DNA of 63,737 nucleotides, filler included, from an uncultured Methanosarcinales archaeon (GTDB taxonomy: Archaea; Nanobdellota; Nanobdellia; Woesearchaeales; UBA12501): NCBI GenBank assembly GCA_964397315.1. It is 5 parts of 5 records of this genome, joined end to end, with 100 filler letters (N's around TTAATTAATTAA, not from the genome) between each part and the next. Parts side by side here need not be neighbours in the genome. Positions count along the whole stretch, not along the records: positions 29,414 to 42,458 come from CAYNHV010000031.1; 4 more parts are not named here. The stretch is one strand, 5' to 3'. The number at the start of each line of letters is the position of its first letter. Positions within the stretch are counted from its first letter, which is position 1. The position numbers and the translations under genes were made by a program. Shown here in pieces: positions 2,017 through 55,417 of this stretch. The notes beneath the pieces were generated by a model that ran no database searches, was not told the DNA's origin, and worked only from the letters and a program-made list of their open reading frames with translations.

Positions 2017-2019
2017 TTA

Positions 2020-2510
2020 TGCATTAATATGAGGGATAAGTTTCTGGTGGTTTTCATGACGTGCTTATATCTCCTGGTGCTTCTATGAAGTATAACAAGG
2101 TCATGCTTATTATTCCTGATACTTCCCGCTATTTAGAGAATTTGCTTGTGCTTATGATTCCAGATTCCTCCCACCCTTACTGCACAACCGCCTCACAGGT
2201 TTTTTCCTTACAAAACAGCACGACTCTCTGCTTCTGCCTCCAATAAGCCCACCCAATCATATGCTTAAAGCGCTCTGTGGAGTTGGTGCGATTAGCATAT
2301 GTGAGGGGGATGGAGGGTGGGAAAAATCAGTTTGTAATCGCGACAAGGGAGGGGGAGAACTCAGGAGGAATCCCCATTTTACAATGAGCAGTATCTTTAA
2401 CTCATAAACAGGCAGATGCAACATCTGGAGGATTTCCCTTTGTAAAACAAGCATCATTCTTAGATTTCTTAAACAAGGAAGGGCAGCACCTGAAGATTTA
2501 TTTCCCCTGT
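2020..2510 (+). repeat. Dispersed non-coding element, copy A (core plus two degenerate arrays)
   Basis: Core CTGCCTCCAATAAGCCCACCCAATCATATGCTTAAAGCGCTCTGTGGAGTTGGTGC recurs near 29.3, 36.3 and 42.3 kb; TGCTTAT..TCC units at 2062, 2104, 2149. Confidence 0.85.
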
Positions 2511-2531
2511 AATGCCTGCAACATAATATCC

Positions 2532-29060: not shown

Positions 29061-29069
29061 TAGTGTTCT

Positions 29070-29313
29070 TTATTGGAGATGGTTAAAAAGCATCCCTCCA
29101 GAGTTTGCCTCCGCCCTCGCTGTCTGGAGTTAACCAACCATCAGATTCCTGATGTTGTGTTAATTAATCCTCCAAATGTTGCCGCCACCCTGTTTAGAGT
29201 TACAACTGCTTCGCCCACCCCCCTCCCCCTTCAACAGCTTTAGAGCACCAACCCACAGAGAGCGCTTTAAGCATATCATTGGGTGGGCTTATTAATGGCA
29301 GAAGAAAGAAGTT
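29070..29313 (-). repeat. Dispersed non-coding element, copy B (runs into contig end)
   Basis: GAGCGCTTTAAGCATATCATTGGGTGGGCTTATT is the near-exact reverse complement of the copy A core. Confidence 0.85.
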
Positions 29314-30174: not shown

Positions 30175-30321
30175 ATTGACACCCTGTTTTATGGTTATGA
30201 AACAGGCCTTGTTTATAAAGTTTTCGTTTATAATACTATAATTTCTACCAAAAATATAGAAAGATTTAAATAATAGCTTATTCTATCAAATACCTATAAA
30301 ATATAATGATGGATTATAAAG

Positions 30322-30684
30322 ATGAACAAAATGAAAAAGCAGATTGTGATAGGTCCGCGGGTTGTCATCCCCTCTATGTGGAACATATTCATGATAAGGA
30401 AGAGGATGCCCCTCTCAGATGATGTTTTCCTGGAGGAGGGAAGGCGCTACATTCAGGCAGGGGAGAGGGGGAAAACTGCCTGCAGCGAATACATGGCAGT
30501 GGTAAGGCAGGACATAAACCACTACAGCAACATCACAAAGAGGAACAGGCGCAAGAGAGAATACCTTATTGTGGCTGAAAAATCAGGCAGAGGCTGGCTG
30601 ATTTACGGAAAAAAAGATGCCAATGCCAGGAGCAAAAAGAAAGCAAGAGAAGCGCTCATAAGAAGGTGGAGGAAGGATAGATGA
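30322..30684 (+). CDS. Hypothetical basic protein
   Basis: 120-aa ORF after AT-rich divergent promoter. Confidence 0.55.
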   Translation: MNKMKKQIVIGPRVVIPSMWNIFMIRKRMPLSDDVFLEEGRRYIQAGERGKTACSEYMAVVRQDINHYSNITKRNRRKREYLIVAEKSGRGWLIYGKKDANARSKKKAREALIRRWRKDR

Positions 30685-30809
30685 AGATCAAGAGTCTTAT
30701 CAGGAGAGCATGGAGTCCTCCTGAAGAGGAGATAGAGAAAAGGTTTCCGGAGAAAGCGGCTCCCAAAGAGAGATCAACCCATGCGGGGAAGTTGTTCAGG
30801 ATGAGGTGA
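30681..30809 (+). CDS. Small ORF paralogous to the N-terminus of 32319
   Basis: MKIKSLIRRAWSPPEEEI versus MKLTHLIRRAWSPAQEDI; ATGA coupling. Confidence 0.5.
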   Translation: MKIKSLIRRAWSPPEEEIEKRFPEKAAPKERSTHAGKLFRMR

Positions 30810-31049
30810 TGCAGGATGGAGAAGATGTTTTACAGCAGCAGGGTGCCGGACAAAAATGCAATCAAAAATATTTAGGCAGCTCCGGCAGACGGCCTTCACA
30901 GCCGCACTGATGATGTCAGCAGGCTTTACTTTGTGCAGGATGCCAAAGCACGGCCTCAAGGCTTTTACGGCTTTTTTTGTTATCTTTTTGGCTGTCATTG
31001 CCGCAGCAGGAGTTATGGAGCGCAGGGTAAAAAGATGCAAGGAAAATAC

Positions 31050-31301
31050 ATGAGGATAACAACAATCATATTGACTGCACTTGCTTTAGTGATTGTTTTT
31101 ATAGGCCTTATCAGAGCCTGCAACCTTGAAAAGCATGAATTGGAAGGCGGCAGGTATTCCATCCAATCCGCCGCCCGGATTGATGGGGATTGCTCCAGGT
31201 CCTGCTTAAAGAGGTGTGAAGGAATAGGGTTTGATTTTTCCAGCTTGGAGGGCTATAATGAGAGTGAATGTATCTGCAGATGCGAAAAAAGTTTTGATTG
31301 A
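31050..31301 (+). CDS. Small Cys-rich membrane-anchored or secreted protein
   Basis: N-terminal TM then CSRSCLKRC..CICRC. Confidence 0.6.
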   Translation: MRITTIILTALALVIVFIGLIRACNLEKHELEGGRYSIQSAARIDGDCSRSCLKRCEGIGFDFSSLEGYNESECICRCEKSFD

Positions 31302-31493
31302 GCCTGCAGCCATTATTGGCATCATCCCCTGAGTCAGCGGATACTGGTGTTGTGATTGTGTTCCTTATCATGGGCATGATAAAGATACGCATAAAGGCCG
31401 GCTGGAAGGATTGCCTTTTTGCGGGGCGCATAATACCTGCTTTGGGAGGCCTGAAAAGACTGATCATCATATTTGTAATTTGTCGGAACTGAG

Positions 31494-32069
31494 GTGAATG
31501 AAATGAGAAAGAAATATTGCACCCACTTTGAAAGAAGCAGAGCAGATGACTTTGAAGAGATTGTTGTCTACAACGGAAAGAAGGTTATCAAGAAACTTTA
31601 TGCTACAGATTTGATTGAAGACTGGCTGAAAAGGAATAATTTTGTATGCAAAACAACCCATCTTGAAGAGGTTTCCGGAAAACGGGGAAAAAAAGAGCTG
31701 GAATTAGTTAAAGTTCTCTATACATACAGTGATGGAAGCCAAAGGGCTTATGAAGGCAGGAATCTGAAAAAATATGGGGAGTTCATGGACCGCATTGCTC
31801 CTTTGGTCTTGACCCATAAGAAAAGCTGGAAACTGCCTGACAGCCCGGCACCAAGGCTTGTCAAGGAAGAAAAAATAAGATTCACAAAAAAAGAGCTGGA
31901 AATCCTGCACAGGCTGGTTGCCGGCAGATTGACTGAAGTCAGCAAAAAAGGCAGTACAAAATACCATCAGCCAACCATGAAAAAGCACATAAAGGAAAAA
32001 GAACTGCTTGATCTGGCCTGCAGGCTGAAAAAGGCAGCGCATGAAAAAAAGAAGATTTATGCAAGGTGA
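31494..32069 (+). CDS. Hypothetical basic protein
   Basis: 191-aa ORF, GAGGTG SD nearby. Confidence 0.6.
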   Translation: MNEMRKKYCTHFERSRADDFEEIVVYNGKKVIKKLYATDLIEDWLKRNNFVCKTTHLEEVSGKRGKKELELVKVLYTYSDGSQRAYEGRNLKKYGEFMDRIAPLVLTHKKSWKLPDSPAPRLVKEEKIRFTKKELEILHRLVAGRLTEVSKKGSTKYHQPTMKKHIKEKELLDLACRLKKAAHEKKKIYAR

Positions 32070-32073
32070 CAAA

Positions 32074-32322
32074 ATGGCAGGGAAAAAATATGCATTCATC
32101 ATACCGCAGATAAAGTGCCCTTTCTGCAGGAGAACACTCCCAAAGAAATACCTGCTGCTGGAACAGCGGATAGCTGATGTAAAAAGGGAGCTTGAGGCAA
32201 GAATAATGCACCCCATAACCGAGAAACAGAAAAAGGAGAGGGAAAGGAAGCTCAAAGCAGAACTGAAAAGGCTCAGGAAGGAGAGAATAAAGTTTCTTAA
32301 GAATCTGGAGGGGGATAGATGA
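32074..32322 (+). CDS. Hypothetical coiled-coil protein with CPFC motif
   Basis: GGTGA SD before ATG 32074; coupled to the next gene. Confidence 0.55.
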   Translation: MAGKKYAFIIPQIKCPFCRRTLPKKYLLLEQRIADVKRELEARIMHPITEKQKKERERKLKAELKRLRKERIKFLKNLEGDR

Positions 32323-32732
32323 AGCTCACTCATCTTATCAGGAGAGCATGGAGTCCTGCCCAGGAGGATATCAAGGATACTCCAAGATGGCTTGTTGTCT
32401 TTGCGATGAGATTTGCCATGATCGCTTTTGCATTAGCCATATTATTGATTCCTCTTGCAGCCTACCAGGCGTATGATTACAAGCATACAAGAGTCAGGCA
32501 CGGCTCTGTCCATTGGGACGAGCATTTCATTGAGTGCAGGGACTGCTCTGAAAACAGGTGTGAAGCATTATGCAGGGAAAAATGCAGCAGGGACGAGCAT
32601 GATATTATGCGCATCTCCAGGATGAACACCACCAGCTGCGGCTGCGTATGCATAAGCATTTCCAGGGACTGTGTTTTCTGTGAGCAGGATACAGACCTCA
32701 TGGAGTTGTCAGAATGGCTGAGAGGAGAATAA
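32319..32732 (+). CDS. Cys-rich single-pass membrane protein
   Basis: TM then CRDC..CEALCREKC..CGCVC..CVFC. Confidence 0.65.
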   Translation: MKLTHLIRRAWSPAQEDIKDTPRWLVVFAMRFAMIAFALAILLIPLAAYQAYDYKHTRVRHGSVHWDEHFIECRDCSENRCEALCREKCSRDEHDIMRISRMNTTSCGCVCISISRDCVFCEQDTDLMELSEWLRGE

Positions 32733-32902
32733 ACCTGAACCGCATAACAGGCATGCTGAACAATGACGAGATTGCAGAGCTTGTTGAAAGGCTTGTCACT
32801 GATGAGCCCCGTTCCAGCAGGAGATTCAAAAAATTCCTTGAAAGAAATAAACTCAAACAACAGTAATAGTTTAACAATTAAACTTTAATTTTTTAAACAA
32901 AA

Positions 32903-33472
32903 ATGACAGCAATGTTTAACTTAATGGACAACAGGAGGAGAAAGCTTACAAAGAATGAGAAAGAGGTTATATGCTGCCTTCTGGACAATGCAAGGATGCA
33001 TGATGTTGAGATTGCCAGAAAGCTGAGGATAACAACGCAGGCAGTCGGCAAGATAAGGAAAAGGCTTGAGAAGGAGGGCATAATAGAGAGCTATTCTGCG
33101 AGGATCAATTACACCAGCGTAGGCATCAATGTTTTTGCTGTCGCAATGATTAGGGCAAGCCCCCGTGTCTGGAGCAATGGCATTGATGCTGTGAGGAAAA
33201 AGCTCGGAGAGCTTGCCAACATCGTCTATATCTGCAGGGTTGCCAGGACAGACATAAGCATAATAGCAGTGTTCGGCTTCAAAAACCTCGCAGAGCTTGA
33301 GGATTACTTCCACAACATCCAGCAGGATGACGTGATAGGGGTCACGGAGCTCTTCACATTTTCGGCAAGAAGCCTTCTGAAGCAGAATATCAACGGGCTG
33401 GTGAGGTACGGGCTCGGCAAGTGCAGGGGAGGAAAGAATCTCTCAACTGAGATGAACAACATACTTTCATAA
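32903..33472 (+). CDS. Lrp/AsnC-family transcriptional regulator
   Basis: LLDNARMHDVEIARKLRITTQAVGKIRKRLEKEGII. Confidence 0.85.
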   Translation: MTAMFNLMDNRRRKLTKNEKEVICCLLDNARMHDVEIARKLRITTQAVGKIRKRLEKEGIIESYSARINYTSVGINVFAVAMIRASPRVWSNGIDAVRKKLGELANIVYICRVARTDISIIAVFGFKNLAELEDYFHNIQQDDVIGVTELFTFSARSLLKQNINGLVRYGLGKCRGGKNLSTEMNNILS

Positions 33473-33572
33473 GTAAATCACAAGAAAACAATGGTTTAAG
33501 ATTTCAACCACAGTTTTTTATAGTTGTGGGGGAGATGACATTACCTAATAGATACACAATGTTGGGGGCAAA

Positions 33573-33836
33573 ATGAGAGTAAAAAATCCGCTTTTTATTA
33601 TTCTGGCATTTCTGATACTGGCAGGAGCGGGTTCTGCAGCAGTGGTAAATTATGTGAGTAACTCTCTTACAGCAACAGTCACAATACAAACACAATGCAA
33701 TGACGGCATTGACAATGACGGAAATGGTGATATAGACATAGATGATCCAGACTGCCATACCGGCGGGGACGCAACAAACTCATCAAGTTATGATATCTGC
33801 CGCACTGAGGACGGCACAATCACGCAATGCATATAG
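33573..33836 (+). CDS. Small secreted protein with CNDGIDNDGNGDID..C motif
   Basis: Signal peptide, AVVNYVSNSLTA, Asp-rich Ca-binding-like motif. Confidence 0.7.
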   Translation: MRVKNPLFIILAFLILAGAGSAAVVNYVSNSLTATVTIQTQCNDGIDNDGNGDIDIDDPDCHTGGDATNSSSYDICRTEDGTITQCI

Positions 33837-33892
33837 TCACCATTCAAATGGCCTGACATGATTTGAGAAAACAGGACAGGAGGGAAGCAAAA

Positions 33893-34699
33893 ATGAAAGT
33901 TAGAGGGAAAGAACTGACAAAAAAGATGGTTGTGATGTTAGCCCTGGGACTTCTGCTTGCAGGAACAGCAAGCGCAGCGCTGGTGAACTACGTGAGCAAC
34001 AGCCTGACAGCATCAGTGGATGTCAGCGCAGTAAGCCTGGAGCTTGGTTTGGCTGAGGCGGATCCGGCAGACCCGACAACATTCTCAGGCTGGGATGACG
34101 GAAGTGGAGGAGTGATACCCCTGACAGGAATCACAGCAGGGGATGACAGCGAGATAGTTACGCTGATGATATCAAACCCGACAAGCCAGGATCTGACAGC
34201 TGATGTAAACATAGCCCTGAACTACATAAACACAGAAGGAATCGACGATCCAGAGAATTGCGATGCAAACGGTATGTATGACCCTGCAGGAAGTGAGCCT
34301 TGTGCTGTCTGCGGACTTTCAAACGACGAGCTCTGCATGGACGGGCAGGAATTTGAGGTCATCGGCGTAAGGGTATGGAACGACGAGTACGACAGGTGGG
34401 GCCCTAGAGTGAACAGCAACCCCTTTGGAGATAATTGCGAGGATGCGGGAATCACCGTAGCAGGAGACTACAATGACGAGGTCTACTATGACGGAAACCA
34501 CTGCTACTGGAACTTTGCGGATGAGGTGCAGGCACAGGTCAGCGCTGGAGAGAATCCCCTGACACTGATAGGGACAAGCAACCAGAACATTCCCCCGGGA
34601 GCGCTGTACACACAGATCTTGGTAAAGTCCAAGTTTGACGGAACATCAGGACTGCAGATAGCACCAGGAGAGTACAGCCTGACCGCAAACATCCAGTAA
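33893..34699 (+). CDS. Secreted acidic protein, possible filament subunit
   Basis: Signal peptide, ALVNYVSNSLTA shared with the upstream gene, ends PGEYSLTANIQ. Confidence 0.7.
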   Translation: MKVRGKELTKKMVVMLALGLLLAGTASAALVNYVSNSLTASVDVSAVSLELGLAEADPADPTTFSGWDDGSGGVIPLTGITAGDDSEIVTLMISNPTSQDLTADVNIALNYINTEGIDDPENCDANGMYDPAGSEPCAVCGLSNDELCMDGQEFEVIGVRVWNDEYDRWGPRVNSNPFGDNCEDAGITVAGDYNDEVYYDGNHCYWNFADEVQAQVSAGENPLTLIGTSNQNIPPGALYTQILVKSKFDGTSGLQIAPGEYSLTANIQ

Positions 34700-34740
34700 A
34701 TTTTTCTTTTTTTATTTCTTTTTGATTAGAGAGGGAGAGA

Positions 34741-35778
34741 ATGAAAAGAACAATCACATACCCAATAATAATGATCCTTTTATCACTGGCAGTGCTGGCA
34801 CAGCAGGAATGCGAGGACGGCATGACCTTAAGCATTCAGGGAGGGGACTCATTCAGCTGCCATATCGCAGAATGCGAGAACCTCACAGTTGAAGTTTCAA
34901 TAACCCCTCATCAGGACGCGCTCAGCGGAGAATATGACCTTACAGGATGCACCAATATAGACCCCCTGCAGGACAACTACACAGGAGCAATAAAATATCA
35001 CTGCCCCTGCACGGATGACTATGTCTTTAATCTCACAACAGCGCAGAACAGCAACGGAACTTATCATCTAATCTTTAACCAGACCATAATAGAATACGGC
35101 CCTGAATTCACCTTAAACATGACCAACGCAACAATCCAGGAGACAGACACTTTCACGATAGAGCTTGAGGCGCAGGACAACGACACAGCCCAATCAAACC
35201 TCGCCTACTCAACAACTGCTTCGTTCGGAAGCATGACCAACAGCACATACACCTGGCAGACAGACTACGACTCTGAGGGAACATATAACATAACATTCTT
35301 TGTTTCTGACGGCAAACATGAAGATAACCAGACAGTTATTCTTAAGGTCACGCACAAGGACAAGCCGAGCCCACCTCCATCAGATGATGATGACACCAGC
35401 GGCGGAGGAGGCGGAGGCGGTTATGTCTCCACCTGCGGCGACGGCATCTGCTCAGGATATGAGAGCTGCGATAACTGCGCTGAAGACTGTGGAGAGTGTG
35501 AGGAGGAAAGCGCTGAAGAGGAAGAGACAGCAGAGGCAGAAACAGAAGAGAAAGGGGGAGAAGGCGCTGGAGAAGAGGAAACAGGTCTTGAAGGAGTGAC
35601 AGGAGGGGCTGCCGGCAATATTACTGAGGAACAAAAGAACGAAGGCCTGTCAGGAATTCTTGGAGCAGTAATCGGAGGCGGAAATAAGAGCATAATGCCT
35701 GCAATAGGCCTCGGCCTTATAATCTTCGGGCTTCTCGGCCTTGCAGGAATGTTCATCCTGTGGAGAAAGAGGAGCTAG
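34741..35778 (+). CDS. Cell-surface protein with Ig/cadherin-like domain, CGDxxC motif and C-terminal TM
   Basis: Signal peptide, GTYNITFFVSDG, CGDGICSGYESCDNCAEDC, TM plus RKR. Confidence 0.8.
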   Translation: MKRTITYPIIMILLSLAVLAQQECEDGMTLSIQGGDSFSCHIAECENLTVEVSITPHQDALSGEYDLTGCTNIDPLQDNYTGAIKYHCPCTDDYVFNLTTAQNSNGTYHLIFNQTIIEYGPEFTLNMTNATIQETDTFTIELEAQDNDTAQSNLAYSTTASFGSMTNSTYTWQTDYDSEGTYNITFFVSDGKHEDNQTVILKVTHKDKPSPPPSDDDDTSGGGGGGGYVSTCGDGICSGYESCDNCAEDCGECEEESAEEEETAEAETEEKGGEGAGEEETGLEGVTGGAAGNITEEQKNEGLSGILGAVIGGGNKSIMPAIGLGLIIFGLLGLAGMFILWRKRS

Positions 35779-35808
35779 ATTTTTTTATTCTCTTTTTTGG
35801 TGGTTATC

Positions 35809-35967
35809 ATGGCAGAAGAAAGTTTCATGCAAGGCATTAAGACAATAAAGGAGGACACCATTCTTGCCCTGCAGGCAGTAAGATATGACTTCAACAATCT
35901 CAGGAATGACATCAAGCTTGCCCTGAACCGGGAGCTGGCTGAGTTCGCGGAGACAGCAAGGCTGTAG
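35809..35967 (+). CDS. Small helical protein (paralog of 38284-38457)
   Basis: MAEESFMQGIKTIKEDTILALQAVRYDFNNLRNDIKLALNRELAEFAETARL; GGTGG SD. Confidence 0.65.
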   Translation: MAEESFMQGIKTIKEDTILALQAVRYDFNNLRNDIKLALNRELAEFAETARL

Positions 35968-35974
35968 TTTCCGG

Positions 35975-36450
35975 TTGACATATTCAGGAATATGTAATCC
36001 AGGGGACAATAACTTTATGCTTATAATCCAGATGCTTCTTATGAGAATAACTTGAGGATATTATTTCTGGCACTTCCCGCTATTTAGAGAATCTGCTTGT
36101 GCTTATGATTCCAGGTGCTCCCCCGAGGGATAATAGACCTATGCTTACAATTCATGGTACTTCCCGCCTTTGTGAAGCTGTATTCTGGTTTTAATGATTC
36201 CAGATTCCACCCTCCCTTTTTGCACAACCACCCAGCAGGCCTCCTGCTTCTGCAACAGCACAACTCCCTGCTCCTGCCTCCAATAAGCCCACCCCTTATT
36301 TGCTTAAAGTGCTCTGTGGAGTTGGTGCTCTGAGCATGTGTGAGGGGGATGGAGGGAGGGACTTATCCATCTGTAAGTGCGACCGGGGCGGTGGAGAACT
36401 CAGGAGGAATTCGCCATTATAAAACATTGTTCTTGAATTCTAAGAATGAT
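35975..36450 (+). repeat. Dispersed non-coding element, copy C (longest ~42-nt array, 5 units)
   Basis: Core at 36274-36328; units at 36018, ~36056, 36100, 36142, ~36187. Confidence 0.85.
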
Positions 36451-36545
36451 GAAAGGTTGCGGCAAAGAGCCGGTGCAGCGATAATCCCCTCTGGAGATTA
36501 CAAGCCTTACAAAGAACCCTGCTTTGTTTAGGCTAAACAGCTTTC

Positions 36546-37556
36546 TCACCCTTCAAAAACCGTTATCTCGTTCCTTGAACCCAGCCGCATGTAAGGCCCC
36601 CAAGTGCCTGTGCCAGGAGAGACATAGAGTTTCATCCTGCCTATCCTGTACATTCCCCTTATCCTGGGAAAGAAAAGCTTGACAATCAGATTGAACGGAA
36701 ATATCTGGCCGTTATGGGTGTGGCCTGACAGCTGGAGCCTGAAGCCCGCCCTTTCCGCCTGCTTCATGCCTGAGGGGGCGTGCCTCAGAAGCACTGCATG
36801 GCCTGAACCCCCTCTCTTGAGCCTCTTTTTGAAGCCGACACCTGTGAACTGCACTCCCTTTATCCTTTTAGAGGTGTTGTCAAGTATTGTAACATTCTTC
36901 AGCATCTTCCTGACTTTCTCCTCTCCCTCGTAAACCTCATGGTTTCCTGTCACGAACAGCACAGGGGCATTAAGCTTCTTCAGCGGCTCAAACATGCCCT
37001 CTTTCAGTGGCGCTGTGCCGTCAACAAGATCCCCTGTTATTGCCACAACATCAGGCTTCAGGGAGTTGGTAATGTCCGCCACCTTCCTCAGGTAGCATGA
37101 GTTCCTCACAGTTCCGAAGTGGATGTCAGACAGCTGGACAATCCTCAGGGGAAGGCCTGTCCTCACCCGCCTCACCCTTATCCTTGAGGCATTGAACACT
37201 GAGTATGCTGTCAGGCCTGCTGTTATGGTGATTATTGCAATGCCTGCAGTGAACGCGGGTATTGCCGCAAATATTCTCAGCAGGTTGTAGATGCCGAACA
37301 GCACAGCGAGGAACAGCAGCACCCCCATCCACAACGCGGTTATTGTGTAGAGAACCCTTGTTGCAATGTTCGGGAATGACCTCTCAATGACTGTTGCAAA
37401 AGGGAATGCGAGAGTGAAGAACGCAGTGAGGATTAGAGTAAGAATTCCATCCATTTCAACAAGATTCAGGATTGAGGACAGCACGAAATAATTAAGAGCA
37501 GCGTATGCTGCCATGAACACCCCCAGAAAGACTGCCATTGAGATGGTTCTTCTCAT
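36546..37556 (-). CDS. Membrane-bound metallophosphoesterase (YkuE-like)
   Basis: SDIH, TGDLVD, GNHE, GHTHNGQ motifs after 4 TM helices; start 37556 or 37574. Confidence 0.9.
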   Translation of the reverse strand: MRRTISMAVFLGVFMAAYAALNYFVLSSILNLVEMDGILTLILTAFFTLAFPFATVIERSFPNIATRVLYTITALWMGVLLFLAVLFGIYNLLRIFAAIPAFTAGIAIITITAGLTAYSVFNASRIRVRRVRTGLPLRIVQLSDIHFGTVRNSCYLRKVADITNSLKPDVVAITGDLVDGTAPLKEGMFEPLKKLNAPVLFVTGNHEVYEGEEKVRKMLKNVTILDNTSKRIKGVQFTGVGFKKRLKRGGSGHAVLLRHAPSGMKQAERAGFRLQLSGHTHNGQIFPFNLIVKLFFPRIRGMYRIGRMKLYVSPGTGTWGPYMRLGSRNEITVFEG

Positions 37557-37710
37557 TCTGAAGAGAGTCTGCATATTATTATAAAAATATTCTGCCTCCA
37601 TCCATTCGCTGGCAGATCTCTGCTGCGCAGGAAAACCTTTTAAACCACCTTTGGTATAGGCATAAAAAAGAGGTTCTAAAGGCGCGCGGAGATATGCTAG
37701 GTGCGGGACT

Positions 37711-38271
37711 ATGGGCATTATAGAATATGACGGAAGGCCGGTGATGGCTGACATAAACAAGGAAGAGGGATGCATTGACATAAAGGTCATGCAGGCTCCT
37801 GGAGACTGCCCGAATACTTACAGCACTGACGAGATGAGCTCCTGCCTGGGCGATTGCGGGGGAATATACGCTCTCCTTAGCTCCAACATCATCTCCCCTG
37901 ATCTGAAGCTGGAGAAGATCCTCATTAAGCATGTTTTTGAGCCTGTCAGTGGGGGCATGGATAAAACAGGCTTTAGTTATGATGAGGCTTTCAGACTGTG
38001 CAAGAGCACCTTGTCTAAAAAATTCGACGAACTTCCCTCTCATGATGTTGAGATAACCCACAAAGGAGTTTATGTGGGGCATTACATGCCCTGCGCTCTT
38101 GCCGAGCCCATGGACGTTGCTAATGATAAAAGAGCAGCGCCTCTCATGTTCTTTATCATAAATAACTTTGCGGACATACTTCAGAGCAGCGGAATAATCA
38201 TCAGCGGAGAATACATATTCAAGAAAGGGGACAGCTTCATTATCGGGGGGTCATATTTACCCCTTCAGTGA
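37711..38271 (+). CDS. Hypothetical protein
   Basis: 186-aa ORF with ATG start, no recognisable motif. Confidence 0.5.
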   Translation: MGIIEYDGRPVMADINKEEGCIDIKVMQAPGDCPNTYSTDEMSSCLGDCGGIYALLSSNIISPDLKLEKILIKHVFEPVSGGMDKTGFSYDEAFRLCKSTLSKKFDELPSHDVEITHKGVYVGHYMPCALAEPMDVANDKRAAPLMFFIINNFADILQSSGIIISGEYIFKKGDSFIIGGSYLPLQ

Positions 38272-38283
38272 ATCCTTCTGTTC

Positions 38284-38457
38284 TTACAAGTTCATGACAG
38301 GGAATGCAAAGTGGGCCTTCTCAGCGAACTCTCTTGCCTGCCTGTCCACGAGAAGATGGATGTCGCTTCTTAGGTCATGAAAGTCTCTCGCGATCATGCC
38401 TGCAGCCAGGCGGATGTCTTCTGCCATGCTCTTTAAATCATCTTTTGTCAGGCCCAT
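38284..38457 (-). CDS. Small helical protein (paralog of 35809-35967)
   Basis: MGLTKDDLKSMAEDIRLAAGMIARDFHDLRSDIHLLVDRQAREFAEKAHFAFPVMNL; AGGTGA SD. Confidence 0.65.
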   Translation of the reverse strand: MGLTKDDLKSMAEDIRLAAGMIARDFHDLRSDIHLLVDRQAREFAEKAHFAFPVMNL

Positions 38458-38490
38458 TGTGTCACCTTCTGAAGCAATAAAAACAAAAAA

Positions 38491-40077
38491 TCATCTTTTG
38501 AATATTCCAATGCTGTATCTGGTCTTCTCGTCAACCAGCCCTGCTATCAGGATGCTGAGCAGTATGACAGCTGCAGTCCAGAATGCAATGCCTATTGTCT
38601 CTCCAAGGCCTGTTGAGTCTCCTGGGCCGGCTGCTGCTCCTGTTACTTCAGGCAGACCTTCTCCGGTGTTGTTCTTGCCTGCAGTAGGTGCAGGCACTGT
38701 CTCGCTGGTTTTTTCTCCTGCCTGTTCTTTCTCTTCAGCGCACTGGCCGCAATCTTGAGGGCAGTTGCTGCAGGTTTCCTCTCCAAGGCAGATGTTGTCT
38801 CCGCAGGTTGAGGTGTAAGTGCTGCCATGATCATCCTCATATTCCTCGCCTGCGTTATCTTCTGTTTCATCATCATCCTGGCTTTCATCCTCATAATCAA
38901 GCTCTACTCTTATCTCGCTGCTTGAGCTGTCCTGCCCGTCATGCGCTGTTACCCTTATCCTGTATTCACCATCTGACAGGGCGAGGCGGTCAGGGAAAAA
39001 TCCCTCTATAATGCCGTCATTATCCTCATTCTCTGCAACAGTAATCCACTCATCCCCTCCTGGGCTGTAGCTTACGCTGATTGAGATACCATCATCTTCA
39101 GGATCTTCTGCCTTCCACTCAAGATCCTTCTTGTCAGTTATGATCTCTCCATCCTCTGGATTCTCTATCTCAACAGACGGCGCCTCATTGGTGTTGTCAA
39201 CACTTATTGCTATCCTGTCCTGGCCTGTAAGCCCTTCCTCATCCTCTGCTGTCAGCCTGAGGAAATACCTGCCGTCATCTATCCTGCTGGTGTTGAACAT
39301 CACGCTTCCCTGCTGATCTGAGGTCTCCAGAATCTCTGTCCATGAGCTCTTGTCAGGGCTGTACTCAAGCACAGCGCTCCTGAAGTCACTATCAGGATCG
39401 TCTATCTCCCATGCTATCTCTGTCATGCCTGAAACGCTCTCATCATCAGAAGGCATTGTTATCGTGACATCAGGTTCTGAAGGCTCAGGGTATGCTTCTG
39501 TTGAGTATTCTGCCTCCATGTCGGGTATGTTCTTGAGCTTGCTGCCGTTTACTGTAGCTTTTATTGTCTCGCCTCGCTTGAGGTCAGCCTCAAACCTTGC
39601 TTTTCCGTTGCTGTCAGTGAAGACCTGCTTTCCATTGACATGCACTCCGATACATGGCCTGGGCTTGCCTGTTTTTGAGGTTACTGTGGCAACAAGCTTT
39701 CCGCCGTCATAATCAAGCTCAAGATTAGATGGAGCTCCGTTGAAGTCAGGCATTGGGTATCCTGTGGCAGTCTGGAAAGCCTCTTCAATGCCTGGTATAT
39801 CAGCAGCTGAGAGAGAGCCGTCTCCGTCAACATCCCACAATTGCTTGTGGTATTCAGCAGGGCATATTGATGTGTTAAGCCCCTCAAGTTCAAGAGAATC
39901 TCCTGTAATAGCCCCCTCTATCTCGCCCCTGTTGGTCATGTCATCAGCTGCAAGATGGCAGTCTCCGTTTGTGTCAAGCCAATAGCAGGTATCCTCCACA
40001 GCAATAGCTGCGGGAATCATCATAAAGAATGCTGTAAGCATTATTAATATTGCTTTTGCCCTCATTTTATCACCCAA
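38491..40077 (-). CDS. Cell-surface protein with dockerin-like N-terminus, Ig-like domains, CGDxxC motif and C-terminal TM
   Basis: DTNGDCHLAADD and DVDGDGSLSAAD repeats, CGDNICLGEETCSNCPQDC, TM anchor. Confidence 0.8.
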   Translation of the reverse strand: MGDKMRAKAILIMLTAFFMMIPAAIAVEDTCYWLDTNGDCHLAADDMTNRGEIEGAITGDSLELEGLNTSICPAEYHKQLWDVDGDGSLSAADIPGIEEAFQTATGYPMPDFNGAPSNLELDYDGGKLVATVTSKTGKPRPCIGVHVNGKQVFTDSNGKARFEADLKRGETIKATVNGSKLKNIPDMEAEYSTEAYPEPSEPDVTITMPSDDESVSGMTEIAWEIDDPDSDFRSAVLEYSPDKSSWTEILETSDQQGSVMFNTSRIDDGRYFLRLTAEDEEGLTGQDRIAISVDNTNEAPSVEIENPEDGEIITDKKDLEWKAEDPEDDGISISVSYSPGGDEWITVAENEDNDGIIEGFFPDRLALSDGEYRIRVTAHDGQDSSSSEIRVELDYEDESQDDDETEDNAGEEYEDDHGSTYTSTCGDNICLGEETCSNCPQDCGQCAEEKEQAGEKTSETVPAPTAGKNNTGEGLPEVTGAAAGPGDSTGLGETIGIAFWTAAVILLSILIAGLVDEKTRYSIGIFKR

Positions 40078-40275
40078 ATACCACTGTTTAGTGAGTAAAC
40101 CAGTGGTGATATATAAATCTTTCGGTTATTAGCTACTCTTTAGTGGTTATACGGTCAGGGGTTGTGAAACCTTTATAAAGAGAGCTTCACTCCAGCTTCT
40201 GAAGAGCTTAAGCCAGTCTTTTGGAATACACTTGCGTTTTTGCTGTTTCCGGAGGCAGGAGAGCAGGAGGGAACA

Positions 40276-40407
40276 ATGACTGAATATAACATTGTAAAGT
40301 ACTGCAGGCTGTGCAGGAAGAGATATGTTGTTGGAAAGGCAGACGCAAGAAAGAACTACTGTGACAAGTGCAAGGCAAGAATAGACGCAGGAGAGGTTGA
40401 GGACTGA
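40276..40407 (+). CDS. Small Zn-finger protein
   Basis: MTEYNIVKYCRLC..YCDKC; GGAGG SD. Confidence 0.65.
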   Translation: MTEYNIVKYCRLCRKRYVVGKADARKNYCDKCKARIDAGEVED

Positions 40408-40453
40408 GGCAGAGACCGCATGATTTATAAACATAATCCAATAATTGCATGTA

Positions 40454-40924
40454 ATGGATGTCTCAAAAATACTTAAGCTCGCCATATCAGTAACAATCTG
40501 CCAGGCCGCGGGCATTCTCGGCGCAGCTTCAACATCAGCAGGAGGATGGTATGACAGCCTTGCAAAGCCTTTCTTCACACCTCCATCATGGGTTTTCGGG
40601 CCTGCATGGATAGCACTCTACCTCCTCATGGGAATCTCGCTCTATCTTGTGTGGCAGACTGGCGCAGAATCAAAACAGAAGAAAAAAGCCATCATAGTTT
40701 TTGCAGTCCAGCTCGCGCTTAATGCTGCGTGGTCTCCATTGTTCTTCGGCATCAGATCGCCTGCAGCAGGGCTGGCTGACATTGCTCTTCTGCTGCCTGC
40801 AATACTCATGACAATGCTTCTCTTCTGGAGGGTTGAGAGGAAAGCATCTCTGCTGTTACTGCCCTACTTGCTGTGGACCGGGTTTGCCCTTGCCCTGAAC
40901 CTCTCCATTGTCCTGATGAACTGA
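40454..40924 (+). CDS. tspO: TspO/MBR family protein
   Basis: WYDSLAKPFFTPPSWVFGPAW, LNAAWSPLFFG, LLLPYLLW. Confidence 0.93.
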   Translation: MDVSKILKLAISVTICQAAGILGAASTSAGGWYDSLAKPFFTPPSWVFGPAWIALYLLMGISLYLVWQTGAESKQKKKAIIVFAVQLALNAAWSPLFFGIRSPAAGLADIALLLPAILMTMLLFWRVERKASLLLLPYLLWTGFALALNLSIVLMN

Positions 40925-40972
40925 CAATTGAAGTCCAAAACCTTTATATACTTCGCACACCTATACAATTTT

Positions 40973-41857
40973 ATGGCAGGGAAAAACAGGGGCGGCAGGA
41001 AAAAGAAAAGCAAGAGCAGGAAAAAGGCAGAAAAAAAGCAGCCTGAAAAAGAGCCGGAAGAGACACCTGAAGAATCCTATTCTGAGGAGGTTGTCCCTGA
41101 GGAGCAGAAGGAGCTGGATGAGGCAGAAGAGGATGCAGGAGAGAGCAAAAAAGAAGACACTGGAAGGAGCAACAGACTCAGGATATTTCTCATGCTGCTT
41201 GTCATAGCAGGCCTGTTCATACCAATAAGCGCTTATGTTGAGATGAATGTGGCATCTGAGCGTAATGTGAGAGAGGCTGTAACAAGCACAGCAATTAATG
41301 TTTGCGAGATGGAAGAGTCAAATCCTGCTGAGAACTGCGCAAAGCCGCGGCTCTCCTCAACAATGTTCACAGAGGAGTACACGTACCAGGATGTGATTGA
41401 TGACGCCACAAACCTCATATACTACGGCGGAGGCAGGGCAACAGACAAGCTCACCCAGGCCCAGAAGAATTTTGTCAGCATATACAGGCTAAAGAACTTC
41501 CATGGATACTCGTACTACGCGCTCTTCTGTGCCATACTCGCCCTTATAGGGATTGTATCCCTCGCCGCGCTATACAGGGGAAGGGATGTTCTTGCAGGAA
41601 CCTTCATGACAGTAGTCAATGCAACCCTGTTCCTGCTCTTCCTGCTCCACACCATAATATTCATAATCTGGACAGGCTGTGTTCCAAGGGTTATGTCAGC
41701 CCTCGCAAGAAGCTCCGGGGAGTCCCTTAAGGTGCTGGTCTTCGGAGCTGACTTCGGCTTCAGCCTTGCAAAGCTCCACCTTGTCACAGCAGCAGTATCC
41801 CTTGTTCTCCTGATAATCATCATAATCATAAGAAAGGCAAGGAACAGGGGAGTATGA
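40973..41857 (+). CDS. Hypothetical multi-pass membrane protein
   Basis: Charged N-terminus, four hydrophobic segments. Confidence 0.7.
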   Translation: MAGKNRGGRKKKSKSRKKAEKKQPEKEPEETPEESYSEEVVPEEQKELDEAEEDAGESKKEDTGRSNRLRIFLMLLVIAGLFIPISAYVEMNVASERNVREAVTSTAINVCEMEESNPAENCAKPRLSSTMFTEEYTYQDVIDDATNLIYYGGGRATDKLTQAQKNFVSIYRLKNFHGYSYYALFCAILALIGIVSLAALYRGRDVLAGTFMTVVNATLFLLFLLHTIIFIIWTGCVPRVMSALARSSGESLKVLVFGADFGFSLAKLHLVTAAVSLVLLIIIIIIRKARNRGV

Positions 41858-42057
41858 TGGACTGGCTATGGCCCGCAGCAGGGCTTGGGACAGGCTTTGT
41901 TCTCGGGCTTGTGACGGGTTTCTGGATTGCAAGGCTCGGACAGGCAAGGCGCGAGAGGAAGCACAGGAGGTTCAGGAAGCTGGCAGGTTTTATAATATCA
42001 CTGCTTGCAATAGCTGCATTAGTGGGCATTATTGCATTCATGATTCTCAAAGGATGA
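41854..42057 (+). CDS. Small two-TM protein
   Basis: Two hydrophobic helices with basic loop; ATGA coupling. Confidence 0.55.
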   Translation: MMDWLWPAAGLGTGFVLGLVTGFWIARLGQARRERKHRRFRKLAGFIISLLAIAALVGIIAFMILKG

Positions 42058-42059
42058 TG

Positions 42060-42405
42060 GAGTTTGTTTATTCTTACAACTCATAGTACTTCCCAGACTG
42101 ATAATATGTTTGCGATAATAACTCCCGGTAATTCCTGGGGATAATAAGTTTGTGCTGGCCCTTCCAGGTACTTCCCTCCCTTTCTGCACAATCGCTTAGC
42201 AGGCTTACACCTTCCAAAACAGCACAACTTCCCTCTTCTGCCTCCAATAAGCCATCCCATTAATATGCTTAAAACGCTCTGTTGGAGTTGGTGCTCTCAA
42301 ACTGTTGAAGGGAGGGTGGGCTTTGTCCATATGTAACTGCGACTGGGGCGGTGGAGAACTCTGGAGAAATCCCCTTTTTTTACAATGAGCATTATTCTTA
42401 GAATT
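42060..42405 (+). repeat. Dispersed non-coding element, copy D
   Basis: Core CTGCCTCCAATAAGCC..ATGCTTAAAACGCTCTGTTGGAGTTGGTGC, three degenerate units upstream. Confidence 0.85.
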
Positions 42406-42406
42406 T

Positions 42407-42458
42407 TAGAAGCTGAGCTTTCCACCAGTCTTTGACTGGTGGCGTAAAAAACTTATTC
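42407..42458 (+). mobile_element. End of multicopy element with hairpin CCACCAGTC-TTT-GACTGGTGG (IS200/IS605-like)
   Basis: 52 nt identical to the reverse complement of 42562-42613. Confidence 0.6.
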
Positions 42459-42558: not shown

Positions 42559-42561
42559 CTA

Positions 42562-42613
42562 GAATAAGTTTTTTACGCCACCAGTCAAAGACTGGTGGAA
42601 AGCTCAGCTTCTA
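42562..42613 (-). mobile_element. Second copy of the hairpin element end
   Basis: Reverse complement of 42407-42458; supplies the stop codon of ORF 42585-42818. Confidence 0.6.
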
Positions 42614-42818
42614 GAGTCATGTGAGGATCATTTCTGAATTCCTGTCTAAAAACTTTTACAAACTTATTATCTGAAGTTAAATAGTATTCATCAAAATAAC
42701 CTATCTCATTCTCAATTAAGGGTATTTTCTCTGACAGCACATTAGCTTCTTTTAGGAGTTCTTCGATATTCGGCTTTCCTGTAAGATCGATGATTGACAT
42801 TCTTATATGCAATACCAT
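42585..42818 (-). pseudogene. Hypothetical gene truncated by element insertion
   Basis: Last ~9 codons derive from the repeat; AT-rich ORF. Confidence 0.5.
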
Positions 42819-43008
42819 ATTCCATATTTAAATCTTTCTATTTTTATCTACTATTTAGTAATAACGTTATTCATTACTTTATAGACAGGAGATTATAATT
42901 CAACCATGCGCCCAAAAAACCCTCAAAAACAGAGGATATGCTGTTGAGGACACCCCACAAGGGCCGGGGGTGAAGAGGATTTAATTCTATGAAAGGCATT
43001 GCTGTAAC

Positions 43009-47131: not shown

Positions 47132-47135
47132 TAAT

Positions 47136-55208: not shown

Positions 55209-55274
55209 GGAATAAATTAGGGGAACAGATTATATAAATTTTGTGATTGAATATGATGAAACAATAAAATGAGT

Positions 55275-55417
55275 GATCTTGCCAGAGTTTACCGCCGCCC
55301 TCTTTAGAGTTGGGTTAAGTTATGTTATGGATTTAATGTAAAGATTGTAATTTTTCCAGGCATTACCGCCTCCCTGTTCAGGGATTTTTGTAAATGCTTT
55401 TTCTGCAATCTCTGTTC
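55275..55417 (-). repeat. Partial copy E of the dispersed element (right-arm units only)
   Basis: CCAGAGTTTACCGCCGCCCTCTTTAGAGTT resembles the copy B units; second unit 74 nt on; ends at gap. Confidence 0.55.

Follow-up and report, generated by a model that had tools for sequence, protein, structure and literature searches.

Among the known systems closest to the element described here are the BOX elements of Streptococcus pneumoniae, and the comparison is one of architecture, sequence similarity being no part of it. According to excerpts of PMC3049150, these consist of boxA, a variable number of tandem boxB modules and boxC, and form composite repeats dispersed through intergenic regions, whose end modules are conserved and whose short internal modules vary in tandem number, often co-oriented with and adjacent to genes; the repeat can itself form open-reading frames (ORFs). 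MITE and REP sequences are short, dispersed and intergenic, carry no transposase gene and break assemblies. A CRISPR array is composed of near-identical direct repeats (~23–50 nt) separated by unique spacers of similar length, with cas genes nearby. [quoted passage not shown]

The element is a repeated intergenic module of 400–580 bases from an uncultured DPANN-type archaeon. The window, i.e., the whole stretch of DNA analysed, is 63,737 nucleotides long and contains five contigs joined by N spacers (1-15769, 15870-29313, 29414-42458, 42559-55417 and 55518-63737). Four copies on three contigs had been proposed, and an nhmmer profile of these copies, searched against the whole window, gave strong matches at exactly these four loci, so that three of the five contigs carry diverged copies. 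The original prediction omits a partial fifth locus (E), which contains two units of a right-hand direct repeat (R units) and no core in view.

Copy A, profile match, 2157-2401, plus strand, E 3.5e-80
Copy B, profile match, 29313-29143, minus strand, E 1.2e-46, truncated where contig 2 ends
Copy C, profile match, 36197-36442, plus strand, E 2.7e-77
Copy D, profile match, 42161-42409, plus strand, E 3.9e-77
Locus E, 55247..55417, minus strand: R units QGGGNAWKN... and EGGGKLWQD..., lying at the contig 4 end, upstream of a ZPR1-like gene and its promoter

Contig ends lie in or adjoin copies B, D and E, and the genome therefore probably holds more copies than are assembled here. In the best-aligned stretches of the body (80–158 nt, blastn-short) the copies are ~84–86% identical, which indicates that they are old. 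The identity varies by part: 81–85% in the core, 61–71% in the small ORF and 52% in the tails. The tight conservation of the core, also part of the original prediction, is borne out by a pattern that matches three of the four copies with no mismatches, versus 0 expected from 100 shuffles; the sole reason for missing copy C is a 1-nt deletion. All datable copies (A, C and B) sit between convergent genes or 3' ends, and in A, C and D a same-strand ORF has its stop codon where the array begins or a few bases away. The element is tentatively explained here as a lineage-specific multi-copy micro-gene cassette.

To the left of the core lie degenerate direct repeats with a period of 41–47 nt.

Copy A, left array, 2019..2148, plus strand: a weak unit at 2019, then those at 2062 and 2104; the leader begins with the unit at 2149
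Copy C, left array, 35986..36188, plus strand: five units at ~35986, 36018, 36055, 36100 and 36142 (repeats, position weight matrix and layout)
Copy C, sixth left unit, 36189, plus strand: runs into the leader
Copy D, left array, 42033..42152, plus strand: units at ~42033 (weak), 42071 and 42112 (weak) (position weight matrix and layout)
Copy D, unit at ~42033: overlaps the last codons of ORF 41854-42057
Copy D, unit at 42153, plus strand: starts the leader

The claimed array of such units is real, as its 24-nt consensus matches four times at ≤3 mismatches versus 0 expected. A repeat search finds three units in copy A (spacing 42 and 45) and four in copy C (spacing 45, 42 and 47), each 68–83% identical to the reference unit. 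With a position weight matrix made from seven units, the cut-off of ≥19 bits is reached only at the element loci and only on the plus strand (three sites in A, three in C and two in D, the latter 82 nt apart and flanking a degenerate unit), and no inverted copy is found in any element. The left arrays are unreported by Tandem Repeats Finder (TRF) because they are too degenerate. The sharing of unit variants between copies likewise stands: A 2108-2163 and C 36059-36114 are 92.9% identical over 56 nt, and C 36144-36165 and D 42073-42094 are 90.9% identical over 22 nt. The 56-nt block common to A and C (93%) lies two units further from the body in C, indicating gain or loss of units or gene conversion. 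In some frames the left units can be read as a 14–15-residue repeat, (M/V)LxIPG(T/A)S. The left-unit motif ATTCCAGG, as read by eye from the layout, appears to complement part of the R units (CCTGGA..AAT).

The element resembles CRISPR in having a conserved block with direct repeats on one side, whose degeneracy grows with distance. It differs in that its period leaves “spacers” of only ~18–23 nt, which share a GATAATA-like motif, while the repeats are 68–83% alike; this is therefore not a repeat-plus-unique-spacer arrangement. A CRISPR array was rejected, there being no near-identical repeats, no unique spacers, no array found by TRF and no Cas by the copies.

The left array passes into a pyrimidine-rich leader, which ends at the core.

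Copy A, leader, 2149..2260, plus strand: pyrimidine-rich, up to the core (~2230-2290)
Copy B, leader fragment and core, 29280-29313, minus strand: the contig end cuts inside the leader
Copy C, leader, 36189..36299, plus strand: pyrimidine-rich, from the last left unit to the core (~36270-36330), by alignment
Copy D, leader and core, 42153..42304, plus strand: by alignment

In copy C the leader has a purine fraction of 0.31 and a GC skew of -0.63. The left half of the body shows no frame preference and no coding signal, and its minus strand is purine-rich (0.66–0.69), as are transcribed strands in this genome. The box GCTTAAAGC is nearly palindromic, AT-rich and invariant except for its last 2–3 bases, and the TAA inside AATAAGCC is invariant in all four copies. 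The core carries 1-nt indels, and the two indels just upstream of the ORF region are of 1 nt each. Its conservation exceeds that of the ORF and it tolerates such indels, so that the strongest constraint is not on the protein.

The near-palindromic box and the purine-rich minus strand of the left half are the features that agree with the mechanism originally proposed, where a minus-strand promoter in the core would drive a precursor of the 41–47-nt array, processed into small RNAs. This mechanism is very improbable. A BRE/TATA matrix learned from 23 upstream regions of the window, with a consensus close to CGAAAGATTTATATAT, gives 10–18.5 bits for 19 of the 23 regions of its own training set, versus -2.8 to 1.4 bits for the core on the minus strand and -1.3 to 5.7 bits on the plus strand. 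The claimed promoter thus falls far below the range of the genes, the plus strand scores higher in four of four copies, and the highest-scoring site in the elements reaches 9.0 bits. The claim of a structured or processed non-coding RNA fares no better: Rfam, run on the whole window, gives no matches at the gathering score, and at a relaxed threshold two chance-level matches (E 0.5–0.6) in the region of copy C and none in that of copy B. Six fold z-scores, from both strands, lie between -0.88 and +0.90 relative to shuffles (-0.88, +0.76 and +0.90 on the minus strand), and compensatory pairs number 2/34 (RNAalifold), 1/21 (minus strand) and 0/23, counts of low power given only 3–4 sequences. 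The degenerate units with motif-sharing “spacers” also speak against an array of this type, which would in addition leave the coding-like right half unexplained.

This right half is G-rich and contains a small plus-strand ORF of 27–48 codons.

Copy A, small ORF, 2261..2407, plus strand: 48 codons from ATG, MLKALCGVGAISICEGDGGWEKSVCNRDKGGGELRRNPHFTMSSIFNS followed by a stop
Copy B, small ORF, 29279-29160, minus strand: 39 codons from ATG (copy span 29160..29313)
Copy C, small ORF, 36300..36422, plus strand: 40 codons from TTG, in-frame ATG at 36336, ending in ...CDRGGGELRRNSPL and a stop
Copy D, small ORF in the homologous frame, 42305..42388, plus strand: 27 codons from TTG, (M)KGGWALSICNCDWGGGELWRNPLFLQ followed by a stop

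A start in the homologous frame is kept in four of four copies: ATG in A, TTG with an internal ATG in C, a shifted ATG with a TTG in B, and TTG in D. The ATG of copy B lies 5 nt upstream of the A/D position, which offsets a +1 indel. In copy D the upstream ATG frame is lost, as a 1-nt insertion puts ATG 42265 out of frame and yields a 23-codon ORF (42265-42336). SD-like GGAG/GGTG sequences are found 8–14 nt before the internal starts of C, B and D only, and copy A has no SD directly before its ATG. A T7 run overlaps the end of the copy D small ORF.

The coding test used the 89 gap-free columns that follow the indel site, i.e., ~29 codons in four related copies. In frame +0, 38 of 112 differing codon pairs are synonymous and no copy has a stop, while the four out-of-phase frames have 7–14 synonymous pairs and contain stops. 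The antisense frame with coincident third positions has 32 synonymous pairs, with 9 conservative replacements versus 21 in +0. In 5000 column shuffles, 38 synonymous pairs were reached in 0.58% of cases for the +0 frame; when the best of three frames is taken, this becomes 1.5%. At the first, second and third codon positions, 16/30, 10/30 and 21/29 columns vary. The pooled pN/pS of frame +0 is 0.51, the lowest of the six frames (0.15–0.62 for the six pairs), compared with 0.60 for the antisense frame and 0.88–1.95 for the others; as the copies are paralogues, the ratio implies constraint after duplication. Only two indels are found inside the ORF region, of 6 nt (D) and 3 nt (B). The coding strands of 18 sampled genes have on average 0.58 purine and a GC skew of +0.15, and the ORF region, with 0.52–0.61 purine and a skew of +0.25 to +0.42, fits a plus-strand gene. 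The non-coding nature claimed for the element is not supported, as the conserved right half shows coding-type substitutions and indels in one plus-strand frame. The coding signal, read from four aligned copies, is of moderate strength and not decisive.

The small ORFs were left uncalled by the gene caller behind the protein database. AlphaFold2 with the four-sequence alignment gave an uninformative model (pLDDT 42.5). An alignment of the peptides searched against a 5.8-billion protein set retrieved nothing at E ≤ 10, and the frame alignment retrieved only P0124 from the same set. Among 1.84 billion representative proteins, P0124 and P0125 were the only matches; the latter, a low-complexity repeat protein matched at 13 profile positions, was put down to chance. 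P0124, encoded on a 41.8-kb contig, is a predicted protein that reads through another copy of the element outside the window, where the reading is shifted out of the GGGELRRN frame after ~25 codons. Pfam and NCBIfam gave no matches to the peptides or to P0124, and in the ESM Atlas recognition was below the level of real families, with unnamed matches only. Among the GTDB species genomes, a 21-base core pattern had no matches and the translated-frame alignment had 86 pattern matches, none confirmed; this genome or a close relative is therefore not recognisably among the species representatives. Plasmids and phages gave no match to copy C (blastn, distant mode) or to the 95-residue open frame of copy A (tblastn). 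Literature on Woesearchaeota intergenic repeats contained nothing relevant by title or abstract, excerpts of the Nanobdellota preprint 10.64898/2026.05.13.725050 have nothing on such repeats, and no work on archaeal MITEs, among the matches listed, describes the element in its title or abstract.

The element could alternatively be a dispersed REP/BOX-type repeat of intergenic regions, entirely non-coding and located between convergent genes. If it acts at all, it would do so as a site at the DNA level or as a 3' adduct that affects the stability or termination of the upstream mRNA; the coding-like pattern would then be a relic of the source sequence. This is rather unlikely, although a number of observations are in line with it: the placement of A, C and B between convergent genes or 3' ends, the array that begins at an upstream stop codon, the modular build with a variable number of internal units, as described for BOX in the excerpts of PMC3049150, and a core more conserved at the nucleotide level than the ORF, with 1-nt indels. 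The small ORF has no canonical BRE/TATA at the distance usual for the window's other genes, where the match ends ~20–38 nt before the start codon, and the frameshift in the outside copy read by P0124 points the same way. In contrast, a paralogue pN/pS of 0.51 together with in-frame indels is unexpected if the element was non-coding during divergence, there is no inverted-repeat symmetry, and fold stability does not exceed that of shuffles on either strand. BOX elements, as excerpted from PMC3049150, are bacterial and have TIRs similar to those of IS and predicted stem-loops, whereas the element here has neither a TIR nor a fold signal; it also has an array on either side of its long conserved body, and one of its frames appears to be under purifying selection. 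If non-coding, it would be an archaeal counterpart of modular bacterial repeats like BOX and, in practice, one reason why assemblies of these MAGs break.

Direct repeats, absent from the original prediction, are also found in the right-hand tail, as R units of 60–90 nt.

Copy A, tail, 2411..2531, plus strand: two decayed R units (2411-2475 and 2476-2535); nhmmer match 2411-2469, E 4.8e-6
Copy B, second R unit, 29064..29136, minus strand: ...SEGGGKLWRDAF and a stop, no start codon
Copy C, tail, 36423..36545, plus strand: one weak R-like unit, up to the stop of a convergent phosphoesterase gene (36546-37790, minus strand)
Copy D, tail, 42389..42458, plus strand: a weak R-like unit with a 9-bp hairpin

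The tail of copy A runs to the stop of a convergent HemK2-type methyltransferase gene (2532-3692, minus strand). The second R unit of copy B adjoins, on the opposite strand, the 3' end of a tRNA-like gene that bears an intron; ARAGORN, including an intron-tolerant run, reported no genes. The R units are partial copies of the ORF 3' end and carry the motif GGG-[EKN]-[LIA]-[WR]-[RKQ]-[NDI]. A strict pattern, GGNGGNGGN-RAN-NYY-WGG, occurs seven times in the window, each time at an element locus. The Gly codons of the motif vary at the third base, and the replacements are conservative (E/K/N, L/I/A, W/R, R/K/Q and N/D/I). A coding test on the seven R units was non-significant (p 0.115) and is circular, because the motif served to select the units. 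The second units of B and E and the tail of A are R units that lie downstream without a start codon.

Such start-less units may suggest that the copies are pseudogene fragments, decaying and functionless relics of a duplicated gene, perhaps of a repeat protein. The left units, readable as an (M/V)LxIPG(T/A)S repeat, the 1-nt indel that separates A and C from B and D, and the single frame shared by the left unit, core and ORF of D, broken by stops, would agree with such an origin. It is nevertheless improbable, since the searches of the 1.84-billion and 5.8-billion protein sets, with P0124 and a chance match as their only yield, found no intact parent gene or relative, the TAA inside AATAAGCC is kept in four of four copies, the left half has no preferred frame, and the core (81–85%) is too conserved for neutral decay when compared with the tails (52%).

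Mobility has also been considered, in the form of a non-autonomous element, MITE-like or trans-mobilised by an unseen recombinase, with the units as binding sites for the enzyme. The copies are dispersed and contigs break at them, the end of ORF 41854-42057 is built from a left unit, as if DNA had been inserted there, and ATTCCAGG appears, by eye, to be complementary to part of the R units. Even so, such an element is quite improbable. The absence of a TIR, claimed originally, was confirmed for A, C and D, whose self reverse-complement scores (20, 26 and 27) are no better than the means of 100 shuffles (23.9, 24.4 and 21.6), the best inverted pair in copy D being a small hairpin in the tail; a long-palindrome or TIR architecture was rejected on the same basis. 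No left unit is inverted, and the copies are old. Pfam, run on 39 + 30 ORFs of the window, agrees with the original prediction that no cas or transposase gene is adjacent: the only transposase in the window is an IS66 on contig 5 (61169-62494), where blastn-short of all copies against the window, with 64 kb of genome in view, found nothing. Plasmids and phages likewise showed no similarity. The only Cas-related match is a CARF/HFX_2341-like wHTH protein at 29590-30174, ~6 kb from C. The element shares with MITE and REP sequences its small size, dispersal, intergenic location, lack of a transposase gene and association with assembly breaks; unlike MITEs it has no defining TIRs, and its copies are diverged (~84–86% where best aligned) rather than near-identical. 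Of the proposal of an undescribed repeat or MITE family, the undescribed dispersed family with a modular, variable-number array is retained, while the assignment to MITEs is not.

In the tentatively preferred micro-gene cassette, ~230–250 nt in length, a pyrimidine-rich, highly conserved leader of ~100 nt would precede the small plus-strand ORF, which is presumably translated into a Gly/Cys-rich peptide of 27–48 residues with the C-terminal motif [CP]-N-x-[KD]-x-G-G-G-[EKN]-[LIA]-[WR]-[RKQ]-[NDI]. The core would represent the junction of leader and ORF start rather than a strong promoter. The left and right arrays are interpreted as decaying tandem partial duplications of the cassette edges, on the left of the leader's first 24 nt with ~18–23 nt more, and on the right of the last 60–90 nt including the ORF 3' end. 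They may have been made by slippage or unequal recombination and shuffled by gene conversion between copies, and the copies themselves probably spread by recombination, not transposition. Transcription might be provided by read-through from the preceding gene on the same strand (A, C and D) or by weak TATA-like boxes. The leader may regulate the ORF, possibly with AGCACAACUCC pairing to the SD-like GGAGUUGGUGCU, which lies just before the internal start codon. In this candidate helix 96.6% of 59 cells pair, versus 32–48% when the partners are slid, and all five one-sided changes give G-U on the plus strand; compensatory changes number zero, and the duplex is no stronger than that of shuffled halves.

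If the small ORF is real, a poorly known DPANN lineage would have a family of micro-proteins, encoded in multiple copies behind a conserved regulatory leader, missed by gene callers and with no relative in the databases searched. This would add to the evidence for small genes hidden in “repeats”. Coding or not, it is lineage-restricted, and its present value is mainly as a well-defined target for transcript or peptide data.

The cassette shares with hok/sok-like type I TA systems an ORF of <60 codons, an intergenic, multi-copy, nucleotide-conserved locus, a long leader that could cover the site of ribosome binding, and duplicates that are decayed or in tandem. An antagonistic, selfish module of two transcripts could be envisaged, in which a plus-strand mRNA encodes the peptide of 27–48 residues, the peptide start region is masked through pairing with its own pyrimidine-rich leader, and a minus-strand RNA starting from GCTTAAAGC, antisense to the leader, runs into the 41–47-nt repeats. 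Such a module is very unlikely. Unlike type I toxins, the peptides have no transmembrane-hydrophobic segment (maximum 19-residue Kyte-Doolittle mean 0.19–0.98; GRAVY -0.27 to 0.00), and the antisense promoter is unsupported, there being only a weak minus-strand TATA-like box. If true, it would be a type-I-TA-like small-gene system with a non-membrane peptide in a DPANN archaeon, and would explain why the cassette has spread in multiple copies, why its core is conserved at the nucleotide level and why decayed tandem duplicates occur.

Several other candidates were rejected. A remnant of TnpB omega-RNA and a group II intron were discarded, as the window contains no TnpB and no RT. A DGR template/variable repeat was likewise discarded in the absence of an RT in the window, and the substitutions, read from the alignment, are not adenine-specific. 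A replication origin with ORB boxes does not fit the number of copies, which is too high, and the window has no Orc1. An alternative genetic code, by which the stops would be read through, was set aside as improbable since neighbouring genes translate normally and end in TAA/TAG. Homology of the small proteins upstream of A and C was dismissed, being limited to a 7-residue match (E 0.017).

Two further observations concern copy D. The last codons of ORF 41854-42057 are made from a degenerate left unit, and the last 52 nt of the copy recur reverse-complemented at the start of contig 4 (42562-42613).

The element is a real, new and lineage-restricted repeat, which plausibly hides a small gene. 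An nhmmer profile recovers all four copies of the original prediction with E-values of 3.5e-80 to 1.2e-46 and finds nothing comparable outside them in the window. The core pattern, at the junction of leader and small ORF, and the 24-nt consensus of the direct repeats to the left (left units) are each far more frequent than in shuffled sequence, where the expected number is 0. A fifth, partial locus (E) had been overlooked.

2157-2401, plus strand: copy A
29313-29143, minus strand: copy B, truncated by the end of contig 2
36197-36442, plus strand: copy C
42161-42409, plus strand: copy D
55247-55417, minus strand: locus E, two units of the right-hand tail (R units), core not in view, at the end of contig 4

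The five contigs, with N spacers between them, occupy 1-15769, 15870-29313, 29414-42458, 42559-55417 and 55518-63737. Their breaks fall inside or beside element copies (B, D and E), which had also escaped notice, and therefore more copies probably exist than are seen in the window. Contig 3 ends, after copy D, in 52 nt (42407-42458) that match the reverse-complemented start of contig 4 (42562-42613) at 100%; this stretch, in which a 77-codon ORF of contig 4 (42585-42818, minus strand) terminates and which holds a 9-bp hairpin (CCACCAGTC/GACTGGTGG), represents either a junction in the assembly graph or another repeat. The first 54 nt are identical in contigs 3 and 5 (29415-29468 and 55518-55571) and include AGTTGGTGCT, which also occurs in the element core, together with a TTAGAATT motif resembling the right end of copy D. 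Two further copies may lie just beyond these starts.

The body of the element is strongly asymmetric in strand composition. Pyrimidines prevail in its left ~100 nt (purine 0.31-0.34, GC skew about -0.62), while its right ~125-145 nt are purine- and G-rich (purine 0.52-0.61, skew +0.25 to +0.42), in agreement with the coding strands of 18 sampled window genes (mean purine 0.58, skew +0.15). In this right half, each of the four copies keeps one and the same plus-strand frame of the element open and has a start codon for it.

2261-2407, plus strand: small ORF of copy A, ATG, 48 codons
29279-29160, minus strand: small ORF of copy B, 39 codons; an ATG 5 nt upstream offsets a +1 indel
36300-36422, plus strand: small ORF of copy C, TTG, 40 codons; in-frame ATG at 36336
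42265, plus strand: ATG of copy D, thrown out of frame by the same +1 indel as in B, leaving a 23-codon ORF
42305, plus strand: TTG of copy D, where the homologous frame restarts, 27 codons

Coding statistics were computed for copies A-D on the 89 alignment columns without gaps that follow the indel site. In the small-ORF frame, 38 of 112 differing codon pairs are synonymous, with 7-14 in the four out-of-phase frames and 32 in the antisense frame with coinciding third positions; against the latter, conservative replacements number 21 vs 9 and the BLOSUM sum is -50 vs -100. Of 5000 column shuffles, 0.58% reach 38 synonymous pairs, or 1.5% when the best of three frames is counted. The pooled pN/pS of 0.51 (pairs 0.15-0.62) is the lowest among the six frames, and indels inside the small-ORF region are of 6 and 3 nt only, the two just upstream being of 1 nt each. 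No frame preference was found in the left half of the body. The element had been described as non-coding, but its right half carries a coding-type substitution and indel pattern in one plus-strand frame.

The strict pattern GGN GGN GGN RAN NYY WGG, found seven times in the window and always at element loci, reads xGGG-[EKN]-[LIA]-[WR]-[RKQ]-[NDI], its Gly codons differing at the third base; a test on these seven units alone is circular and not significant (p 0.115). Copy A also has a minus-strand ORF of 92 codons (2257-2535) that covers its tail and right half in the antisense frame with coinciding third positions; the ORF's ATG and the methyltransferase gene's TGA overlap as ATGA. More radical replacements and a purine-poor strand make coding less likely for this ORF.

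The coding reading is based on four related sequences and ~29 codons. A canonical promoter for the small ORF is absent, as is an SD before the ATG of copy A. The peptide profile has no homologue among 1.84 billion representative proteins and gives two matches only, AlphaFold2 is uninformative on the peptides (pLDDT 42.5), and Atlas, Pfam and NCBIfam add nothing. One of the two matches, P0124 (149 residues, E 1e-6), is encoded on a 41.8-kb contig outside the window and is an ORF call reading straight through another element copy (...LPPFLHN.LAGLHL..KHNSLLLPPISPP..LLKALCGVGAISICEGDGG...). There the frame departs from the GGGELRRN register after ~25 codons, and therefore the same peptide would not be made. 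Pseudogene fragments are an improbable explanation of the element.

Pairwise identity is 81-85% in the core, which comprises the leader end and the first ~10 codons counted from the ATG of A, 61-71% in the ORF and 52% in the tail. Because 1-nt indels are tolerated in the core, constraint there acts on nucleic acid and not on protein. As a candidate explanation, AGCACAACUCC in the leader may form a helix with GGAGUUGGUGCU, UAAGC/GCUUA being part of it; GGAGUUGGUGCU is SD-like and precedes the internal start codons of C, B and D by 8-14 nt. Of the 59 cells of this helix 96.6% pair, vs 32-48% with slid partners, and all five one-sided changes lead to G-U pairs, on the plus strand only. The helix is a lead only, because compensatory change is absent among the copies and duplexes of its halves are no stronger than shuffled ones. 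Gene conversion between copies could likewise account for a uniform core.

A processed ncRNA locus had been proposed, but the element matches no Rfam family. For the ~226-nt body, the six fold z-scores from the two strands of A, C and D are -0.82, -0.88, -0.84, +0.76, -0.13 and +0.90, and consensus folds show compensatory change in 2/34, 1/21 and 0/23 pairs, which speaks against a stably folded RNA. Window genes carry a clear BRE/TATA close to CGAAAGATTTATATAT, whose end lies ~20-38 nt upstream of the start codon. When a matrix was trained on 23 upstream regions of the window, 19 of these same training sequences scored 10-18.5 bits. With this matrix the element's plus strand reaches -1.3 to 5.7 bits in the core and its minus strand -2.8 to 1.4 bits, the latter lower in all four copies, and the core is a poor promoter by this genome's standard. 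The minus-strand promoter proposed for the core is thus not supported, and its combination with a processed array is highly improbable.

The ~42-nt left array itself was correctly recognized. It consists of degenerate direct repeats in a single orientation with a period of 41-47 nt (3-4 units in A, 5-6 in C, 3-4 in D), weakening with growing distance from the body. Unit variants are indeed shared: a 56-nt block is common to A and C (93% identity), lying in C two units further from the body, and a 22-nt unit to C and D (91%). The right-hand tail, overlooked before, is likewise repetitive: A has three R units of 60-90 nt and B two, and weak ones are present in C and D. A CRISPR-like array was rejected: the units are 68-83% alike only, the "spacers" of 18-23 nt have a common motif and, as noted earlier, cas genes are not near.

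The left-unit matrix detects no inverted units in any element, and self reverse-complement scores (20, 26 and 27) are at shuffle level (means 23.9, 24.4 and 21.6), in line with the reported lack of TIRs. Inverted-repeat architecture, and therefore the defining feature of a MITE, is absent, and membership of this class is not supported. A mobile element devoid of TIRs, which the dispersed copies might suggest, is decidedly improbable. Contig 5 carries an IS66-family DDE transposase gene (61169-62494, plus strand), unrelated in sequence to the element.

The preferred but tentative reading is that the element is a multi-copy micro-gene cassette of leader and small ORF. Its copies and arrays, the frame-dependent pattern and the outcomes of the negative tests are direct observations; that the ORF is translated, how the cassette is transcribed and spreads, and what the leader does are inferences. 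In A, C and D the array begins at the stop codon of the preceding same-strand gene, and between this gene and the cassette there are no T runs of at least five except T6 inside the leader of A. The cassette would probably be transcribed together with, or just after, that gene. Both arrays would be decaying tandem partial duplications of the cassette edges, generated by slippage or unequal recombination, and gene conversion would shuffle their units.

The nearest architectural analogue is the pneumococcal BOX element, for which PMC3049150 describes conserved end modules, a variable tandem boxB array, frequent co-transcription with genes and repeat-formed ORFs. BOX elements have IS-like TIRs and stem-loop folding, whereas the present element has neither. 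A purely non-coding repeat of the REP/BOX kind would agree with the missing canonical promoter, but less so with the frame-specific pattern, and is rather unlikely. Type I toxin-antitoxin loci resemble the cassette in having a small ORF, a long leader, multiple copies and decayed duplicates; their toxins are typically small hydrophobic proteins (PMC2887945, PMC6563280), while the present peptides are not hydrophobic. The element is assigned to no known family. No description of such an element was found in the portions of literature searched, nor any similar sequence in GTDB species genomes, plasmids or phages. The repeat, with its plausible hidden small gene, merits targeted follow-up, although a new RNA-array system would have been more remarkable.

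The gene content of the window is archaeal (TFB, pyrimidine and arginine pathways, a PKD-repeat surface protein of 2867 residues). The HemK2-type methyltransferase adjoining copy A has closest relatives at 58-59% identity only, with source names mostly Woesearchaeota or Nanoarchaeota among the matches listed, which points to a DPANN-type host with no close sequenced relative. The giant PKD protein (20243-28846, plus strand), with at least nine PKD-type domains, is probably a surface or adhesion protein, and its gene has tandem repeats of 15 and 30 nt near the 3' end (27560-27877). Immediately upstream of glmS (47136-48875) lies a gene (45905-47131, plus strand) for a protein of 408 residues whose C-terminal domain is LAGLIDADG; this gene has a palindromic TATA region (TTTATATAT/ATATATAAA) in common with a divergent methyltransferase gene (45344-45853). 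The contig 4 region 43284-45123 may be a plasmid-derived or toxin-antitoxin island; it contains a PRiA4_ORF3-like protein (43284-43985), an ORF with a weak ParE-like toxin domain (44474-44818, minus strand) and an overlapping small ORF upstream (44818-45123, minus strand).

A tRNA-like gene (28930-29063, plus strand), undetected by ARAGORN (intron mode included) and by Rfam, has an acceptor stem GGGCCCA...TGGGCCCA, a T-loop GTTCAAA and an anticodon stem-loop of Val type (GAC). Its D-arm and T-loop each appear to be interrupted by an insert of ~30 nt, possibly a non-canonical intron, and the 3' end of the gene lies only a few bases from the end of copy B.
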